A stretch of DNA of 64,000 bases from Alphaproteobacteria bacterium (GCA_965220825.1 OZ244839.1:3077280-3141279); one strand, 5' to 3'; counted from the stretch's first letter, positions 28,330 to 58,946 are shown. Numbers and translations: made by a program. Notes: generated from the sequence alone by a model not told the origin.

Positions 28330-28614
28330 CTAACGGCTTGCGGCCTCGACGACGAGGCGACCGCGACCGCGCTTGACCAGATAGCCGCCGCGCGGGATGC
28401 GAAGCGTACCGTGCTTGACGAGCGGCCAGAGAGCGTTGGCGATGGCCTCCGCATTCCGGTCCGCCTTGTTCGGTCCCGGTTGCGAGTTGAGCCACTCGGC
28501 AAAGGCGCGCTCGCCGATGGAGCCGCCGACGGACTTGCGCAGGGCATTCAACTTACGGAGCTGCCCTTTTGTGAGCGCGCTCTCGTCGATGGCGTTTGAC
28601 GATAGAGTTCTCAT
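28330..28614 (-). CDS. hypothetical protein (94 aa) in lower-GC islet
   Basis: ORF MRTLSSNAIDESALTKGQLRKLNALRKSVGGSIGERAFAEWL... No family recognised. Followed by a GC hairpin at about 28290-28318. Confidence 0.35.
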   Translation of the reverse strand: MRTLSSNAIDESALTKGQLRKLNALRKSVGGSIGERAFAEWLNSQPGPNKADRNAEAIANALWPLVKHGTLRIPRGGYLVKRGRGRLVVEAASR

Positions 28615-28969
28615 GATCTTCCTGTGTTCGGTTGGACAAGGTGATGCATTCCGCTCAACGGACGTTGCTCAGAACGTGGCCATATCTTGCATGAGGCCGG
28701 AGAGAAACGAAAGAACTTTTTTGCCGAGATGCTCCCCATCCTGCGCGCATGTCGAAATTTTCGAATACGTCTATCCGATGGGTATTGCCGGTGCGGTGGC
28801 CGAATCGTCGCACACGATCGTCGCACCACTGCACGAGGCCCTGCGTTCGTTCGGGTGAGCGACGAGTGGCGCTCCGAATAGCCGGTGGCGAATCAGGGAA
28901 GCAGGAGGAAATCGTAATTTCCGGCAGGATCCAGGTCGTAAAGAACCCCTGGTGGTCTATGATATTTCC

Positions 28970-51923: not shown

Positions 51924-52835
51924 ATGTGTGGAATTGCGGGCGTCATGTTCAAGCATGGCGGCACCGGCCTGGAGGCCGGCCGCGCGCTGATCGATATGCT
52001 CGACGGCTGCCAGCACCGCGGACCGGATTCAACGGGCTTCGCGCTCTATGAGGAAGCGCGCGAGGGCGAGCTCAGATTCCGTTTCCTCGTGGGTGAGGGC
52101 GCCGGCAGGGACGATTCGATCGCGCGCATCCGCGGCCTCCTCGAGGAGAAGGGCGCGGAAATCGTGGACGACGAGCAGGTCGGCAACAGCTACCGCGCCG
52201 TCGTGCGCTTCTCCGGCGACGTTCAGAAGCTCGCCTACGAGATGGAGAACGCGGCGACACTCGTTTCCATCGGTGAGAGCCTCGACATCCGCAAGGATGT
52301 GGGCGGTGCGCACGATGTGGACGAACGCTTCCAGGTGAGCGCCGTAAGGGGTACGCACGGGCTCGGCCATGTCCGGCTCGCCACCGAATCGGACGTGAAG
52401 CCCGAGGCGGCCCATCCGTTCTGGGCCACGGGTTTCACCGACATCGCCATCGTGCATAACGGTCAGATCACCAATTATTGGAAGATGCGCAGGCGGTTGG
52501 AGCGGCGGGGCTTCGAGTTCCATACCGACAATGACAGCGAGCTGATCGCCGTCTATCTCGCGGACAAGCTCGCGAACGAGGCGACGCTCGAGGACGCGCT
52601 GAAGACCTCCATCGAGGACCTGGACGGCACGTTCTCCTTCCTGGTCTCCACCAAGGACGAAATCGGTTACGCCAAGGACCATCTCGCCGCCAAACCCATG
52701 ATCATGTACGAGAACGACGACATGATCGCCATCGCGTCCGAAGAGGTCTCGCTCAACCGCCTCTTCCCGGGCCGTGCGCTCGACACCCGGGAACCGCCGC
52801 CAGGGAGCTACGGTACATGGTCCAGGTCGATCTAG
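51924..52835 (+). CDS. class-II (Ntn) glutamine amidotransferase domain protein (GlxB / N-methylglutamate synthase subunit A-like)
   Basis: N-terminal MCGIAG nucleophile Cys2, about 303 aa stand-alone GATase-2 domain. Confidence 0.75.
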   Translation: MCGIAGVMFKHGGTGLEAGRALIDMLDGCQHRGPDSTGFALYEEAREGELRFRFLVGEGAGRDDSIARIRGLLEEKGAEIVDDEQVGNSYRAVVRFSGDVQKLAYEMENAATLVSIGESLDIRKDVGGAHDVDERFQVSAVRGTHGLGHVRLATESDVKPEAAHPFWATGFTDIAIVHNGQITNYWKMRRRLERRGFEFHTDNDSELIAVYLADKLANEATLEDALKTSIEDLDGTFSFLVSTKDEIGYAKDHLAAKPMIMYENDDMIAIASEEVSLNRLFPGRALDTREPPPGSYGTWSRSI

Positions 52836-54802
52836 GCGAAATCGCCGTACGCGAAGCCAACGAGGCGATCCGCGAATATGGCGCCCGTGGCGAGGATGTG
52901 GAGGTTCTCAACCCGGACGCACGGCACCATATCGGGGTCGGCCTGATCCATCCCGTCACGGTGCGGGTGCGCGGCTCGGCGGGCTATTTCTGCGCGGGCC
53001 TCGCCGACCGGGCGCGCTTCGAAATCGATAACAATGTGGGCTGGGGCCTGGGCGACAACATGTATTCCGGCACCGTGATCGTCCGCGGCAATGCGGGCGC
53101 GATCGCGGGTGTCGCCATCCGGGGTGCCGAGATCGTGATCCACGGCAATATGGGCTCCCGCGCCGGCCAGGTGATGAAGGCCGGCACGCTGTGCTGCGTC
53201 GGCAACGCCAACTTCATGGCGGGCTACATGATGTATGGCGGGCGCATCATCATCCTCGGGGAATCCGGCGAGCGCGTGGGCGAGGACATGTCCGCCGGCG
53301 AAATCTATATCGGCTCCCGCATCCATAGCCTGGGCTCGGACGCGGAACTCGCCGACATCGAGGCGTCGGAACTCGACGGCGTGCGGGAGTTCCTGGACCG
53401 TCACGAGATCCCGTTCAAGGGGGGCTTCCAGAAGGTGGTGAATGCGGGCAAGCGGCTGCGCTACGCCACCTCGGAGCGGCAAGTGCGCAGCATTCCGTTC
53501 TTCACCTTCTCCGGCAAGTCGGACTACTGGAACGACAAGGTCCAGGAGGACATCTACATCAAGTCCCAGATCGGGCGTTACCGGGTGCGGGGGTATGGCG
53601 GTGCGCGGGAGCTCCCGCACCTCTCCGACATCGCCTTCCGCAAGGATCTCTCGTCGGCGGGCACCCGGGGCGACCCGGTGGCGGCGGTCGAGATGCGGAC
53701 GGAGATCGGCGGGTTGAACGGTGCGCGCCCGCTCTCGCTCTCCATGCCGGTGATGATCGCGCCCATGAGCTACGGCGCGCTCTCACGTTCCACCAAGCAG
53801 GCGGTGGGCATGGCGTCCAGCATGGCGGGAATCGCCGAGAATACGGGCGAAGGTGGCATGAGCGACGCCCAGCGGGGTGCGGCGGAACAGCTCGTCTTCC
53901 AGTGCCTGGGCGGGCGGCTCGGCTGGAACATCCACGACATGAACCGTGCCGACGGGCTCGAAATCTATATCAGCCAGGGCGCGAAGCCCGGTTTCGGCGG
54001 CCAGCTCATGGCGAAGAAGGTCACGAAGGAGCTTGCCACCATCCGCGGCATCCCCGAGGGGATCGATCTGCGCTCGCCCTCGCGCCACCCCGATATCCTC
54101 GGTGCCGACGATCTGGTCATCAAGGTGGAGGAGTTCCGGGAGGCGACGGGCTACCGCATCCCGGTGAGCGTGAAGCTCGGCGCGGGCCGCGTCCGCGATG
54201 ACATCAAGATTGCCTACAAGGACGGCTTCGACTTCGTGGAGCTCGATGGCATGCAGGGCTCCACAGGTGCCGGCGGCGCGGAGGTGATGGAGCATGTGGG
54301 GGTGCCCACCATCGCCGCCATCGTCCAGGCCATGCGCGCGCTGGAGGAAGTGGACGGCCTCGGCAAGATGCAGATCGTCCTCATGGGCGGCATCCGCGAC
54401 GGGGTGGACGCGGTGAAGGGCCTCTGCCTCGGCGCGGACGCCGTCGCCATGGGCACCGCGGTAATCATTGCCGGCGGTTGCATCGCCTGCATGCAGTGCC
54501 ATGTGGGCCAGTGCGTGACCGGAATCGCGACCCAGGACCCGGAGCATGAGCGCCGCTACAACCCGGTGGCGGAGGCACGCAACATCCACCGCTATCTGGA
54601 GGGGGTGCGCTGGCAGATCGCGGCGCTGACCCAGGCGCTCGGCTATTCCAGCACGGTTGATCTGAATCGCGGCGATCTGGTGGCGCTTACGCGCGATGCG
54701 GCCGAGATGACGGGCCTTCCCTACGAACCGCAATACCGGGAGCGGGAACGCGAAACCGCCCTTGCACAGCGCTTCCGCGCGGTTCGCGACGGCGTGAGCT
54801 GA
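52817..54802 (+). CDS. fused GXGXG-domain + FMN-binding glutamate-synthase-central-domain protein (GlxC-GlxD / MgsB-MgsC-like fusion)
   Basis: N-terminal repeated GxGxG beta-helix region (VRGSAGYF..VIVRGNAGAIAG..IVIHGNMGSRAG..). C-terminal PF01645-like blocks (MIAPMSYGALS, ENTGEGG, SQGAKPGFGGQL, GMQGSTGAGG, MGGIRDGVDAVKGLCLGADAV, 3Fe-4S-type CxxCxxxxC GGCIACMQCHVGQC). Confidence 0.75.
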   Translation: MVQVDLGEIAVREANEAIREYGARGEDVEVLNPDARHHIGVGLIHPVTVRVRGSAGYFCAGLADRARFEIDNNVGWGLGDNMYSGTVIVRGNAGAIAGVAIRGAEIVIHGNMGSRAGQVMKAGTLCCVGNANFMAGYMMYGGRIIILGESGERVGEDMSAGEIYIGSRIHSLGSDAELADIEASELDGVREFLDRHEIPFKGGFQKVVNAGKRLRYATSERQVRSIPFFTFSGKSDYWNDKVQEDIYIKSQIGRYRVRGYGGARELPHLSDIAFRKDLSSAGTRGDPVAAVEMRTEIGGLNGARPLSLSMPVMIAPMSYGALSRSTKQAVGMASSMAGIAENTGEGGMSDAQRGAAEQLVFQCLGGRLGWNIHDMNRADGLEIYISQGAKPGFGGQLMAKKVTKELATIRGIPEGIDLRSPSRHPDILGADDLVIKVEEFREATGYRIPVSVKLGAGRVRDDIKIAYKDGFDFVELDGMQGSTGAGGAEVMEHVGVPTIAAIVQAMRALEEVDGLGKMQIVLMGGIRDGVDAVKGLCLGADAVAMGTAVIIAGGCIACMQCHVGQCVTGIATQDPEHERRYNPVAEARNIHRYLEGVRWQIAALTQALGYSSTVDLNRGDLVALTRDAAEMTGLPYEPQYRERERETALAQRFRAVRDGVS

Positions 54803-54805
54803 GCC

Positions 54806-57322
54806 ATGACGATCTCCGAGATGGACAGTGGCGGGCAGCTTCTCGCCGAACTTCCCGACGATACCGGCGACATCCACTTCGTCCCGGCGCCTTGCCAGGT
54901 TGCCTGCCCGGTGGGCACGGACGCGCCCTCCTACATCGCCTATATCTGGGAGCGGAAGTTCGAGGAGGCATTCGAGGCCATCACGGCCACCAACCCGTTC
55001 AGCTCCATCTGCGGGCGGGTGTGCGACGCGCCCTGCGAACCGGCCTGCCGGCGCACCGATTCCGACGGGCCGGTGCAGATCCGCAACCTCAAGCGCTTTG
55101 TCATGGACGCGGTCGGCCCCGATCACGCGCTGCCGCCGGTGCCGGTGACGAAGCAGCAAACCGTCGCCGTGGTGGGTTCGGGTCCCGCCGGGATGACGGC
55201 CGCGCACGATCTTTGCGTCGCGGGTTACGAGACGCATGTCTATGAAATGACGGACCGTCTCGGCGGCATGATGGTCTGGGGAATCCCCGCCTTCCGGCTC
55301 CCGACGGGCATCATCGGGGAGGATATCGATCGCATCGCCAAGCGCTGCCCCGGAATGAAGATCCATCTCGATACCGCCCTCGGGCGGGACGTGACGCTCG
55401 ATGAGTTGAAGGAGCGCCACGACGCGGTGATCCTCGCCATCGGCGCCTGGTGGGGCAAGAAGATGGGGATCCCGGGCGAGGACGATCCGAGGGTGATCGA
55501 CGGCGTGCAGTTCCTGAGGGACGTGAATGAAGGCGCCCGGCCCGAGATACCGGAGACCGTGGTGGTGGTGGGCGGCGGCGACGTGGCGATGGATGCCTGC
55601 CGGGTCGCCAAGCGCCTCCCCGGCTGCAAGCATGTCAAGGTGATCTACCGCCGGGGTCCGGCGGAGATTCCGGCGCGCAAGATCGAACTCGAGGGTGCCG
55701 TCGCCGAAGGAATCGAGTTCGTCTACCACACGCAGCAGACGGAAATCGTGAAGGACGGCAACGGGCTCGCGGTCCGCTGCCTCCGGACGACCCTTGGCGA
55801 TCCGGACGAATCGGGCCGCCGCAGCCCCGTCAACATGCCGGGGACGGAGCATGATATCTCGTGCGGCATGGTGATAGCCTCGGTGGGCCAGGAGGGGCTC
55901 TGCGACGATCTGGACGGCCGCGGCATGATGGGGACCGACCGGGTGCGGACGGACTGGGAGACCATGCGCACGAGCGATCCCAAGGTCTTTGCGGCCGGCG
56001 ACGGCGCCTTCGGCGGCTCCACCATCGTCATGGCCATGAACCACGGCCAGCGGGTCGCCTATTATGTGAAGGCTTTCCTCGAGGGGCGGGACGATCCGCT
56101 TCCCTATCGCACGCCCTTCCGTACGCGCCGCGTACCCGTGGCGCAGGATCTGAAGTGGGAGCTGCTGCCGGTGCAGCACCCCGATTTCCTCGGTCTCGGC
56201 GAGAAGCCCGTGGAGTTCCCCGAGATCGAGACCACCTACGACTGGAATGCGGCGCGGGACGAGGCGGCGCGCTGCTTCCGCTGCGATGCGGAGACGGGCT
56301 CGGCCGACTATTCGGTCGACCACCGGGAGGATATTTTCGCCATGGCGCGCACCAACCCGGTGGATGCGGCCCGTCAGACGACGACGCTGCGCAAGCGCAT
56401 GGAAGGCCGCGACGACCCCTTCCCGCCGGAGCGCCTCGGGGTGCTCGACGACCTCGCTTTCCTTCCGGCCAACCTCTCCCGCCTCGTGATCGACCCCTAT
56501 CGGGAGGCCTGCCGGATCGACACCCGGGTGGGCGAGCTTCGCCTCGACCTTCCCTTCCTCGTCGCCGGCTTCGACACCGCGCCCGCGGATGTGCGCCGCG
56601 CGGTCGGGCAGGGCCTCGCGGAGGCCGGCGCCGCCTATCTCGGGCTCGAGCCTCTGGGCGGAGAGGCCGCTTGGTTCCAGCTCGTGATGCCGGATCAGAT
56701 TCCGCCGTCGCCCGAGGCGGCGGGTATCGTCCACGCGCTGGGCCACAGCTTCCGCCCCGTGGAGCCCAATCGCCTGCGCGAGGGCCAGGTGGCGGGTCTT
56801 GCCGTCTCCTCGCCCGCCGTTCTGGAGGAGGCGATCCCCCATGCCCTCGAAGCCGGCTTCGACATGCTGCTGCTGGACGGCAGTGCCGGTCTCGGAACCT
56901 CCTGGGCGGAACTCCAGGGCCCGCCTGACCTCACGATCCTGCGGGATGCCGTTTCCATCCTGCGCCGCCTCGGGCGCGAGGAGGAGATCGACCTGGTCTA
57001 TTTCGGCGGCGTGCGCTCCGGCACCGATGCGGCGAAGGTGATCGCCATGGGCGCGGTGGCGGTGGTACTGGGAGTCGTGGTAGGGCTCGCCGCGGGCGGT
57101 GCCGTCGACCAGACCCACGCGATGCGCTTCTCCGCCGACCGCACGGACGAGGACCGCGCGCGGGGCGCCACCAACATCGTGAAGGCGTCCGCCTCGGAAG
57201 CCTCCATGATGGCCCGCTGTACGGGCAAGACGAACCTCCAGAATGTGGAGCCCGAGGACCTGCGCGCACTGACCGCCGCCACCGCCGAAGCGACCGGCAT
57301 CCCACTCGCGGGGACGCAGTAG
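54806..57322 (+). CDS. GltD-like NAD(P)H flavin oxidoreductase fused to a second, degenerate glutamate-synthase FMN-type TIM-barrel domain
   Basis: N-terminal Fe-S Cys clusters (CQVACPVG, CGRVCDAPCEPAC), two dinucleotide-binding motifs (VAVVGSGPAGMTAA, VVVVGGGDVAMD). C-terminal about 370 aa with PF01645-like blocks (LLLDGSAGLGTS, IDLVYFGGVRSGTDAAKVIAMGA). Confidence 0.65.
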   Translation: MTISEMDSGGQLLAELPDDTGDIHFVPAPCQVACPVGTDAPSYIAYIWERKFEEAFEAITATNPFSSICGRVCDAPCEPACRRTDSDGPVQIRNLKRFVMDAVGPDHALPPVPVTKQQTVAVVGSGPAGMTAAHDLCVAGYETHVYEMTDRLGGMMVWGIPAFRLPTGIIGEDIDRIAKRCPGMKIHLDTALGRDVTLDELKERHDAVILAIGAWWGKKMGIPGEDDPRVIDGVQFLRDVNEGARPEIPETVVVVGGGDVAMDACRVAKRLPGCKHVKVIYRRGPAEIPARKIELEGAVAEGIEFVYHTQQTEIVKDGNGLAVRCLRTTLGDPDESGRRSPVNMPGTEHDISCGMVIASVGQEGLCDDLDGRGMMGTDRVRTDWETMRTSDPKVFAAGDGAFGGSTIVMAMNHGQRVAYYVKAFLEGRDDPLPYRTPFRTRRVPVAQDLKWELLPVQHPDFLGLGEKPVEFPEIETTYDWNAARDEAARCFRCDAETGSADYSVDHREDIFAMARTNPVDAARQTTTLRKRMEGRDDPFPPERLGVLDDLAFLPANLSRLVIDPYREACRIDTRVGELRLDLPFLVAGFDTAPADVRRAVGQGLAEAGAAYLGLEPLGGEAAWFQLVMPDQIPPSPEAAGIVHALGHSFRPVEPNRLREGQVAGLAVSSPAVLEEAIPHALEAGFDMLLLDGSAGLGTSWAELQGPPDLTILRDAVSILRRLGREEEIDLVYFGGVRSGTDAAKVIAMGAVAVVLGVVVGLAAGGAVDQTHAMRFSADRTDEDRARGATNIVKASASEASMMARCTGKTNLQNVEPEDLRALTAATAEATGIPLAGTQ

Positions 57323-57377
57323 CCCCAGTTTGCTCCGTGGTGCCTGGGGACCGGCCGCCGTGCCTACACAGCAATTG

Positions 57378-57557
57378 ATGCTCCGATGTGGATCATGTGA
57401 GAAAATGACGCTTCATGTGCGTCAAAGAATAAACCATCTTCTGCATTTTGTTATATCGGCATCAACCATTATATGGGCGATTGTTTGGCTTATTCTTATA
57501 TTTAGTGACAGACGTATGGCGCAATGTACGCAGTGTGGTGGATCGAACAAGGTTTAG
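57378..57557 (+). CDS. tiny zinc-ribbon membrane protein (CxxC - TM helix - CxxC), hypothetical
   Basis: MLRCGSCEKMTLHVRQRINHLLHFVISASTIIWAIVWLILIFSDRRMAQCTQCGGSNKV. Located in a 250-bp segment of about 42% GC. Start uncertain (ATGs at 57330, 57378, 57405). Confidence 0.35.
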   Translation: MLRCGSCEKMTLHVRQRINHLLHFVISASTIIWAIVWLILIFSDRRMAQCTQCGGSNKV

Positions 57558-57650
57558 TCGAAATATGCGCGTTAGTACGGGCGGTCGCATTGACGCCGGC
57601 AGCAGCGTGAACCTGAACGGGGAGCGATCTCTCGCATAGGATGGCAGCCC

Positions 57651-58946
57651 ATGCGCGTTCACCTGAATTACGGCCGCGGCAAGCGTGCGGTAGAGCTTCC
57701 GGAGGGGTGTGACGTCACCGTCATTGCCAAGCAGGCGATGCCGGTGCTGGCGGCGCCTTCCGCCGCCATGGCGCGGGCGCTCGCCGAGCCCGTGGGCTGT
57801 GCGCCGCTCGCCAAGGAGGCCGCGGGCGCGGCGAGCGCCTGCATCCTGATCTGCGACGTCACCCGCCCGGTACCCAACGGGGTCATTCTTCCGGTTCTCG
57901 TCCGCGCCCTGCTGGGTGCCGGCCTTGCGCCCGATTCCATCACGGTGCTGGTGGCGACCGGCCTGCACCGGCCCAATGAAGGGGCGGAACTCGCGGAGCT
58001 GGTCGGCGACCCCTGGGTGCTCGAGACGGTCCGGGTCGAGAACCACTTCGCCCGCAGCGACGCCGACCACCGCTTCGTGGGCCGCACCCGGAGCGGCACG
58101 GTCGTCCGGCTGGACCGGCGCTTTCTGGAAGCGGACCTCAAGATCGCGACGGGGCTGGTGGAGCCCCACTTCATGGCGGGCTGGTCCGGCGGGCGCAAGG
58201 TGGTGGCGCCCGGCATTGCCCACGCGGAGACGGTGACGACGTTTCACAGCGCGCGCTTCATGGAGCACCCCGACTGCGCGAACTGCGTGCTGGAGGGCAA
58301 TCCGCTGCACGCGGAGCAGCTTGAAATCGTGGGCATGCTGGGGCCCTTGCGGGCGGTCAATGCCGTCATCGACGACGAGCGGCGCGTCTCCTTCCTCAAC
58401 TATGGCGAGATCGTCGCGAGCCATGCGGCGGCGGTCGGTTTCGCCGCGCCCTTCGCCACCGTGTCCGTGAGCGAGCGCTTCGCCACCGTGCTCACCTCCG
58501 CCGCCGGCCACCCCCTCGACCAGACCTACTATCAGACGGTCAAGGGCATGGTGGGACCCATGCAGATTCTGGCGCCCGGCGGGGACCTGATCGTGGCCTC
58601 CGCCTGCTCCGGCGGTTTGGGGTCGGCGGACTATGCCGAGGCCCAGCGCCGCCTGGTGGCGCTCGGCCCCGAGCGCTTCCTCGCCGGCATCGAGGGAAAG
58701 ACTCACGCCGCCATCGACGAGTGGCAGACCGAGATGCAGCTCAAACCCATGCGCGTGGGCACGATCCATCTCTTCACCGAGGGGCTCTCGGAAGAGGAGC
58801 GTGCGCTCACCGGCGTCCGCACCGTGGACTCCCTCGAGGGCGCCGTCGCCGAGGCCGCCGCGCGCCACGCCCGCAACGGCGACCGCCGCATCGCGGTTAT
58901 CCCCGAAGGCCCCTACGTCGTGCCGCTTCACCGGCACGCGGCGTAG
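57651..58946 (+). CDS. LarA-family protein (nickel-pincer-nucleotide-dependent 2-hydroxyacid racemase/epimerase-like, DUF2088)
   Basis: 431 aa. LVATGLHRP and HFMAGWSGGRK blocks characteristic of LarA N-terminal domain (Lys for NPN tethering), second catalytic His region. Confidence 0.7.
   Translation: MRVHLNYGRGKRAVELPEGCDVTVIAKQAMPVLAAPSAAMARALAEPVGCAPLAKEAAGAASACILICDVTRPVPNGVILPVLVRALLGAGLAPDSITVLVATGLHRPNEGAELAELVGDPWVLETVRVENHFARSDADHRFVGRTRSGTVVRLDRRFLEADLKIATGLVEPHFMAGWSGGRKVVAPGIAHAETVTTFHSARFMEHPDCANCVLEGNPLHAEQLEIVGMLGPLRAVNAVIDDERRVSFLNYGEIVASHAAAVGFAAPFATVSVSERFATVLTSAAGHPLDQTYYQTVKGMVGPMQILAPGGDLIVASACSGGLGSADYAEAQRRLVALGPERFLAGIEGKTHAAIDEWQTEMQLKPMRVGTIHLFTEGLSEEERALTGVRTVDSLEGAVAEAAARHARNGDRRIAVIPEGPYVVPLHRHAA

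Follow-up and report, generated by a model that had tools for sequence, protein, structure and literature searches.

A horizontally inserted gene between glutamate-synthase-like and LarA-like genes of an alphaproteobacterium, probably an orphaned member of an uncharacterised phage and mobile-element family of small membrane proteins

The window analysed here is a stretch of 64,000 nucleotides (nt), one strand, from the genome of an Alphaproteobacteria bacterium (GCA_965220825.1 OZ244839.1:3077280-3141279). It contains an AT-rich islet within positions 57323-57650, which constitute the whole 328-bp spacer between the stop codon of a gene for a GltD-like oxidoreductase and the ATG of a gene for a LarA-like protein. 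The islet is foreign DNA that was inserted horizontally. It probably represents a recently acquired gene of 65 codons that belongs to a widespread, uncharacterised family of small membrane proteins of phages and mobile elements, or, in other words, an orphaned moron. The donor of the gene would have had a lower content of guanine and cytosine (GC) than the source genome, and the gene would exist here as an orphan copy away from any phage. An earlier note on this DNA had considered a horizontally inserted small-protein gene as one of several options, and this suggestion is upheld by the composition, the codon usage, the absence from syntenic relatives and the membership in a conserved protein family.

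The small gene occupies positions 57360-57557 of the plus strand (198 nt) and has a GC content of 41.9%, as against a window mean of 67.8% (z = -6). The low-GC block, measured in 30-nt windows, extends approximately from 57362 to 57570 with 27-53% GC; it is narrower than the spacer and roughly matches the extent of the coding sequence. This block is the most extreme compositional spot of the 64-kb window, with a minimum of 38% GC per 150 nt, and a single intact open reading frame (ORF) coincides with it, as the earlier note had described for an islet of about 42% GC. The rest of the spacer looks like host DNA. Its left part of 37 nt (57323-57359, plus strand) has 76% GC and contains the sequence GGGGA. 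The right part of 93 nt (57558-57650, plus strand) has 61% GC, and about 20 nt at its end (GCATAGG...) share homology with the short spacer that precedes the LarA ATG in relatives. The second-lowest GC value in the 64 kb, 49%, was found at about 28590; this spot (28580-28740) lies between ORFs of opposite strands and looks like an ordinary intergenic region, unrelated to the islet.

The codon usage of the gene was described as very different from that of the neighbours, and it is. The GC content at third codon positions (GC3) is 38%, while the four neighbouring genes have 85-90%. With the neighbours as reference, the codon adaptation index (CAI) of the small gene is 0.16, compared to 0.71-0.76 for the neighbours themselves, and the lowest value recorded among 67 windows of 65 codons from the neighbours is 0.62. 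Thirty of the 65 codons are rare, with a use below 10% within their synonymous set in the neighbouring genes. The amino-acid composition does not explain this anomaly, because the anomaly sits at synonymous positions. Family members in GC-rich phages have a GC content close to that of their own genome, and therefore the 42% found here is not a family trait. Codons 2, 3, 5 and 6 are already rare, which places the beginning of the foreign DNA right at the start codon.

The start codon is most likely GTG 57360, giving a predicted protein of 65 amino acid residues, MPTQQLMLRCGSCEKMTLHVRQRINHLLHFVISASTIIWAIVWLILIFSDRRMAQCTQCGGSNKV, which ends at a TAG codon. The alternatives are ATG 57378 (59 residues) and TTG 57330 (75 residues). 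A family hidden Markov model (HMM), built from 105 homologues with the window sequence excluded, matches the ORF over its full length (73 bits, E 6e-22), and this is the sole significant match to the model in the six-frame translation of the 64 kb. GTG 57360 is preferred because the alignment to the model runs upstream of ATG 57378 as far as the V of the GTG, so that V-P-T-Q-Q-L-M pairs with the family N-terminus M-s-t-k-q-k-s. In the 65-residue protein the first Cys is preceded by nine residues, a number shared with the family consensus. The GGGGA of the left spacer part, at 57346-57350, is a Shine-Dalgarno-like element 9 nt before GTG 57360; direct reading of the sequence revealed no Shine-Dalgarno element before ATG 57378. 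Of the ORF of 59-75 codons proposed earlier, the single intact frame thus stands, and the range of lengths gives way to a corrected gene model of 65 residues from GTG.

The predicted protein comprises an N-terminal Cys knuckle, C10xxC13, a stretch of 22 hydrophobic residues, LLHFVISASTIIWAIVWLILIF, and a C-terminal knuckle, C56xxC59, with the motifs CGSC and CTQCGG as described from the sequence. The first knuckle (C10-G-S-C13) is encoded by 57387-57398 of the plus strand, the N25-H26-L-L28-H29 motif at the start of the helix by 57432-57446, the hydrophobic helix of residues 26-49 by 57435-57506 and the second knuckle, together with the following glycine (C56-T-Q-C59-G60), by 57525-57539.

A word-indexed homology search with the 59-residue form gave no match. 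An exhaustive phmmer search of a database of 1.84 billion cluster representatives, with a cut-off of E<=1e-3, returned 224 proteins, nearly all of them full-length matches to proteins of 60-130 residues, and a profile search extended the family to at least 1,281 proteins. Where the source gives a name, it is nearly always 'hypothetical protein', and all members are unnamed or generically named. The top phmmer hit, P0001 (proteins are designated by P numbers and genomic loci by L numbers), and also P0036 were rejected as spurious, since they are translations of tandem-repeat DNA with scores summed over many weak repeats; P0136 (1,832 residues, 25 matched stretches) shows a similar pattern.

The family shares the motif M-x-T-x-Q-x-M-x-x-CxxC-x-K-x-T-x(7)-NHxLHLxLSxxTxGxWxxVW-x(about 12)-CTxCG. 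Alignments of 106 sequences show seven invariant positions (Cys, His, Leu, His, Trp, Trp and Cys) and eight more that are conserved in at least 90% of the sequences. The window protein retains all seven of the former (C10, H26, L28, H29, W39, W43 and C59) and five of the latter (C13, N25, T36, C56 and G60). A one-residue deletion has removed the near-invariant Gly between T and W of the helix, and two conserved Leu residues are replaced by Phe and Ile. The spacing between the first CxxC and NH is 11 residues in 103 of 103 members and in the window protein, and that between NH and the second CxxC is 31, within the family range of 31-33. Judged by this agreement, the islet ORF is a real gene and a member of a conserved protein family. 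The nearest relative found by phmmer and by peptide-pattern searches shares 53% identity, and peptide patterns derived from the window protein retrieved no close relative from viral and metagenome contigs.

Searches of Pfam, NCBIfam and PADLOC yielded nothing significant for the window protein, and for the family PADLOC gave no meaningful match either (one member matched Cas8b, E 0.004). A comparison of 63 members with PHROG families at E<=1e-3 gave matches to phrog_2697 (60 members), phrog_34413 (56), phrog_36892 (46), phrog_17545 (44) and phrog_35826 (38), all five annotated as families of function unknown. The five best PHROG matches of the window protein are to the same five families, and they are weak (E 0.003-0.19, none at E<=1e-3). 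The motif CxxC-11-NHxLH-TxGxW..VW-CxxCG is common to these families and the window protein. Unlike them, the window protein is encoded in a bacterial metabolic operon with no surrounding phage and is devoid of the conserved Gly. A tblastn search of a phage collection with the window protein produced one near-full-length weak match (E 0.1), to which the family HMM assigns 83.5 bits. The window gene adds a new, divergent member to a phage family that has been catalogued but not characterised.

In many members (for example P0002, P0003, P0004, P0016, P0072, P0183 and P0155), the conserved module is extended on its C-terminal side, in some by about 150 residues. Some of the extended proteins possess a second hydrophobic helix, and P0183 has a HIRAN domain. 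The 60-residue module would thus also act as an N-terminal membrane anchor for variable tails. The first knuckle is degenerate, CxxD in place of CxxC, in P0232, P0248 and EVB67_082 of Rhizobium phage RHph_TM3_3_14B, and metal binding by four Cys residues is therefore not possible in all members. The annotated start of EVB67_082 (L085:2971-3222) trims the family N-terminus, and an in-frame ATG upstream gives an N-terminus in agreement with the family, MGIQKRRMFCEDD...

The genomic surroundings of the homologues point to phages. For nine context look-ups, members were picked by the length of their contigs and without regard to any phage signal. Six of them reside in phages or prophages (L081, L084, L089, L090, L091 and L093) and two in recombinase-bearing islands (L086 and L082, the latter adjoining DruA); the context of L088 is unclear. 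The octapeptide pattern of one member alone led to 18 IMG/VR viral contigs. Two positions recur. In five loci (L081, L091, L098, L108 and L110), the family gene directly follows a gene for a CI/S24-type repressor in the same orientation. In five others (L085, L096, L102, L107 and L109), it lies antisense within the tail operon and abuts the 5' end of the tape-measure gene, which is annotated as such in L085 (Rhizobium phage RHph_TM3_3_14B) and was recognised by Pfam TMP_3 in the remaining four. By geometry, the genes in L101, L104, L105 and L093 are probably also antisense beside a tape-measure gene. Both recurrent positions are classical ones for genes that remain active in a repressed prophage. 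The L081 copy is situated at the end of a Mu-like prophage and is directly followed by a second tandem paralogue (L081:6224-6442, plus strand, family HMM E 2e-30), which was not among the called genes. The gene of L090 is convergent with the repressor gene and next to cro, and that of L089 is flanked by the genes for the tail tube and the tail terminator. No family member was seen in a lysis cassette in the loci examined, and in these phages, prophages and integrative islands no homologue was seen beside LarA.

The absence of the gene from related LarA loci supports its insertion. In 185,579 species genomes scanned with the LarA protein, the matched stretches contained 572 confirmed relatives, of which the 80 best were analysed further. 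Ten loci preserve the order glt661, gltD838, larA, namely L001-L008, where the LarA identity is 76-77%, L039 and L080. In six of the ten (L001, L003, L004, L008, L039 and L080), the spacer between gltD and larA measures 18-50 bp; in the other four (L002, L005, L006 and L007), it holds a different gene encoding about 130 residues. The small gene is missing from all 80 LarA loci, the ten syntenic ones included, as found by tblastn and by the family HMM on six-frame translations of about 0.9 Mb. Alignment with the relatives places about 280 extra bases of the window between short conserved ends of the spacer.

The different spacer genes (L002:5591-6000, L005:5582-6000, L006:5585-6000 and L007:5585-6000) have a GC content near that of the host, and the one in L002 matches Asp_protease_2 (PF13650, with a DTGA motif), a retropepsin-like aspartyl protease. 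Small genes seem to land repeatedly in the space that separates gltD from larA. A 9-nt repeat, ATGCGCGTT, occurs at 57565-57573, just past the stop codon of the small gene, and at the LarA start, 57651-57659. It was considered as an insertion footprint and set aside as probably due to chance, since 86 of 500 shuffles reach the flank-alignment score. An imperfect GC-rich inverted repeat of 22 nt is present at 57275-57296 and 57582-57603, with 73% complementarity.

In phage HK97, the tail chaperone and tape-measure genes flank gene 15, the first moron to be described; its product, gp15, is a small inner-membrane superinfection-exclusion protein that blocks DNA entry in a phage-tail-dependent manner, and gp15 relatives are also found in bacteria outside prophages (PMC3594210). 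HK97 gp15 is encoded by an insertion of deviant GC content, and the window gene is deviant too (41.9% against 67.8% GC, with the GC3 contrast given above). The family homologues beside the tape-measure gene share the gp15 slot, but they are on the opposite strand, and the likeness drawn here is one of position. A prophage position expressed in the lysogen is found for the homologues, in the tape-measure slot or next to the repressor, and not for the window copy. Unlike gp15, the window copy is outside a phage and shows no promoter or terminator of its own.

By analogy with gp15, the family in its phage setting would consist of moron-type accessory proteins, whose most likely role would be superinfection exclusion at the membrane by blocking tape-measure-dependent DNA entry. 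The protein would be anchored in the cytoplasmic membrane by its hydrophobic segment of 22-24 residues, and metal may be bound at the cytoplasmic face by both Cys knuckles, perhaps with participation of the invariant HxxH. If the window gene is expressed, this would probably occur by read-through from the glt-like operon, since the gene lies inside that operon; a low protein output is predicted because of the poor codon adaptation. The two prophage positions make superinfection exclusion directly testable with existing phages, for example with Rhizobium phage RHph_TM3_3_14B. The interest lies mainly in a large uncharacterised family (at least 1,281 proteins, five PHROGs) with a rigid motif, a LITAF-like layout and two stereotyped prophage positions; the window copy probably matters little for the physiology of its host, and the locus is of modest interest.

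The suggestion of metal binding derives from LITAF. In the LITAF domain, two CxxC motifs flank a hydrophobic stretch of some 22 residues; the domain binds one zinc and acts as a monotopic membrane anchor with both termini cytoplasmic (PMC5095921). This order of knuckle, hydrophobic stretch and knuckle is that of the window protein, and the phrase 'zinc ribbon split by a transmembrane segment', used in the earlier note, describes the layout well. The HxCPxC signature of LITAF, however, is absent from the family, which has its own invariant NHxLH and W...W, and LITAF proteins are eukaryotic and endosomal. End-to-end matches to the Pfam LITAF model (PF10601) at E<=0.1 were obtained for 24 of 63 members. 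Ten members examined individually scored below the gathering cut-off, and three members exceeded the gathering score of 23.8 bits (29.0, 24.9 and 25.6 bits). The window protein had no match to PF10601 at E<=1 in either the 59- or the 65-residue form and is below the gathering cut-off. The helix flanks carry a net positive charge in 90% and 83% of the members, which fits a cytoplasmic location of both flanks. The HxxH at the helix start may belong to the predicted metal site, because it is at least as conserved as the cysteines. That the family works like LITAF is a reasonable model by analogy; that it consists of LITAF-domain proteins is, on sequence grounds, unproven. If the link were true, the LITAF domain of eukaryotes would have a relative in prokaryotes or viruses. 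The literature searched contained no paper on LITAF-like proteins of bacteria or phages.

Other comparisons of the protein produced little. Foldseek, run with its AlphaFold2 model, returned no match from the PDB and nothing but noise from BFVD, and a profile search of PDB sequences gave only insignificant zinc-knuckle matches (L33, eL42 and rubredoxin). Weak matches to Pfam DUF4234 (PF14018) over the helix (HILHLxLSxxTxGxWxxVW) occur in 31 of 63 members, one of which passes the cut-off; these matches cover only about 20-30 helix residues and may reflect composition and not homology, and the window protein has none.

Several observations weigh against the interpretation of the islet as an orphaned moron or against parts of it. 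No phage, recombinase, integrase or other mobile-element gene is present near the islet (window positions 52-64 kb). A consensus scan, to which the promoters of the source organism may not conform, detected no sigma-70-like promoter in 57100-57800, and no plus-strand terminator was found in the same interval, so that the classical moron anatomy is not seen. The very low CAI argues for weak translation. The window protein could be decaying or inactive, because the near-invariant helix Gly is lost and no relative exceeds 53% identity. Superinfection exclusion is proposed on the grounds of genomic position and analogy. The likeness to LITAF is also weak in profile comparisons: hhalign of the family against 13 bona fide LITAF domains sets the knuckles in register with a probability of 7.4% (E 0.0047), and against human LITAF alone the probability is 2.9%. 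AlphaFold2 predicts one continuous helix of 24-25 residues with small beta-hairpins and low-confidence ends, both for the window protein (predicted local distance difference test score, pLDDT, 73.6; helix at residues 20-43 of the 59-residue form, pLDDT about 90) and for P0005 (pLDDT 65.1). Such an unbroken helix, as modelled, fits a membrane-spanning helix with the knuckles on opposite faces at least as well as a LITAF-like ribbon.

A bolder version of the proposal joins the two analogies. The family would then be a prokaryotic and phage branch of LITAF, a widespread and hitherto overlooked class of prophage-expressed, zinc-stabilised monotopic proteins that block superinfecting DNA at the tape-measure step, and the window gene would have been recruited as a one-gene defence. 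In this full form the proposal is rather doubtful.

Some of the features that weigh against an orphaned moron also bear on the possibility that the islet is a silent relic, in which an intact gene left by an earlier insertion is neither expressed nor functional and is being lost. The CAI of 0.16 with 30 rare codons, the loss of the near-invariant Gly, the lack of a detectable promoter and of any accompanying mobile element, and the failure to find a close relative anywhere searched would all suit a relic. The reading frame is intact, however, the seven invariant residues and the two family spacings have all been retained, and a Shine-Dalgarno-like element and a start codon stand at the correct place, while the position inside the operon makes read-through transcription likely. 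A relic is thus unlikely, and an orphaned moron that could still be translated remains the preferred interpretation.

It is quite unlikely that the gene encodes a small membrane toxin, whether the toxin of a type I toxin-antitoxin system, a holin-like protein or an abortive-infection effector. A small protein with one strongly hydrophobic helix, from a phage and mobile-element family, would suit such a role, and a eukaryotic LITAF relative, CDIP1, is described as pro-apoptotic (PMC7865452). In addition, the 5' part of the gene contains, at 57424-57406 of the minus strand, a terminator-like hairpin followed by a T-run that could end an antisense RNA. The hairpin could also be due to chance: terminator-like sites, of which two were found in 700 nt, are modestly above the 0.4 expected from shuffled sequences, and no antisense gene or promoter was identified. 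The positions on the repressor side and in the tail operon belong to genes expressed in the lysogen, which would be odd for a constitutive toxin. Both the absence of the family from lysis cassettes in the loci examined and the lack of a meaningful PADLOC match speak against a toxin as well.

In a genome of 68% GC, AT-rich DNA can have promoter activity or recruit xenogeneic silencers, and the segment is located directly upstream of LarA. The earlier note accordingly allowed for a leader or promoter region of the LarA gene and the following major facilitator superfamily (MFS) transporter gene. A non-coding element of this kind (a leader, riboswitch, promoter or silencer-binding site controlling the pair, with the ORF being incidental) is very unlikely. 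A scan with Rfam 15 gave two chance-level matches only, snoR120 (E 8.3) and sX9 (E 2.7), both far below the gathering scores, so that no riboswitch or leader was recovered, and no sigma-70-like promoter came to light in 57100-57800. Relatives manage with a spacer of 18-50 bp before LarA. The conservation is at the protein level, and a non-coding sequence would neither match a protein family at E 6e-22 nor retain all of its invariant residues. The islet may still have a side effect on LarA expression.

The remaining idea, likewise raised in that note, of a membrane-tethered Ni/Zn delivery or accessory factor for the neighbouring LarA-like nickel-cofactor enzyme is hardly credible: the gene does adjoin the LarA homologue in the same orientation, and its four Cys and two His residues could bind metal, but none of the 80 LarA loci, including the ten with glt-like/LarA synteny, has a family member, the homologues are in phages, prophages and islands and were never seen beside LarA, and the foreign composition marks a recent arrival and not a co-evolved partner. 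A tempting but wrong functional link to a nickel enzyme is thereby removed.

The host genes on either side are on the plus strand. Upstream, the GltD-like oxidoreductase of 838 residues (54806-57322) contains Fer4_20, Pyr_redox_2 and a C-terminal FMN/Glu_synthase-like part; downstream, the LarA-like protein of 431 residues (57651-58946) matches the Pfam families Lar_N (4e-52) and LarA_C (7e-14). They are part of a glutamate-synthase-like set with LarA (51924-58946) that encodes a class-II amidotransferase, a protein with GXGXG and flavin mononucleotide (FMN) domains, and the unusual 838-residue GltD-like protein. The location of a LarA-family gene directly downstream of the three-gene glutamate-synthase-like set is conserved in ten genomes, and an MFS transporter gene follows LarA in the window and in L001, L039 and L071. 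The substrate of the LarA homologue may be linked to the glutamate-synthase-like enzyme complex.

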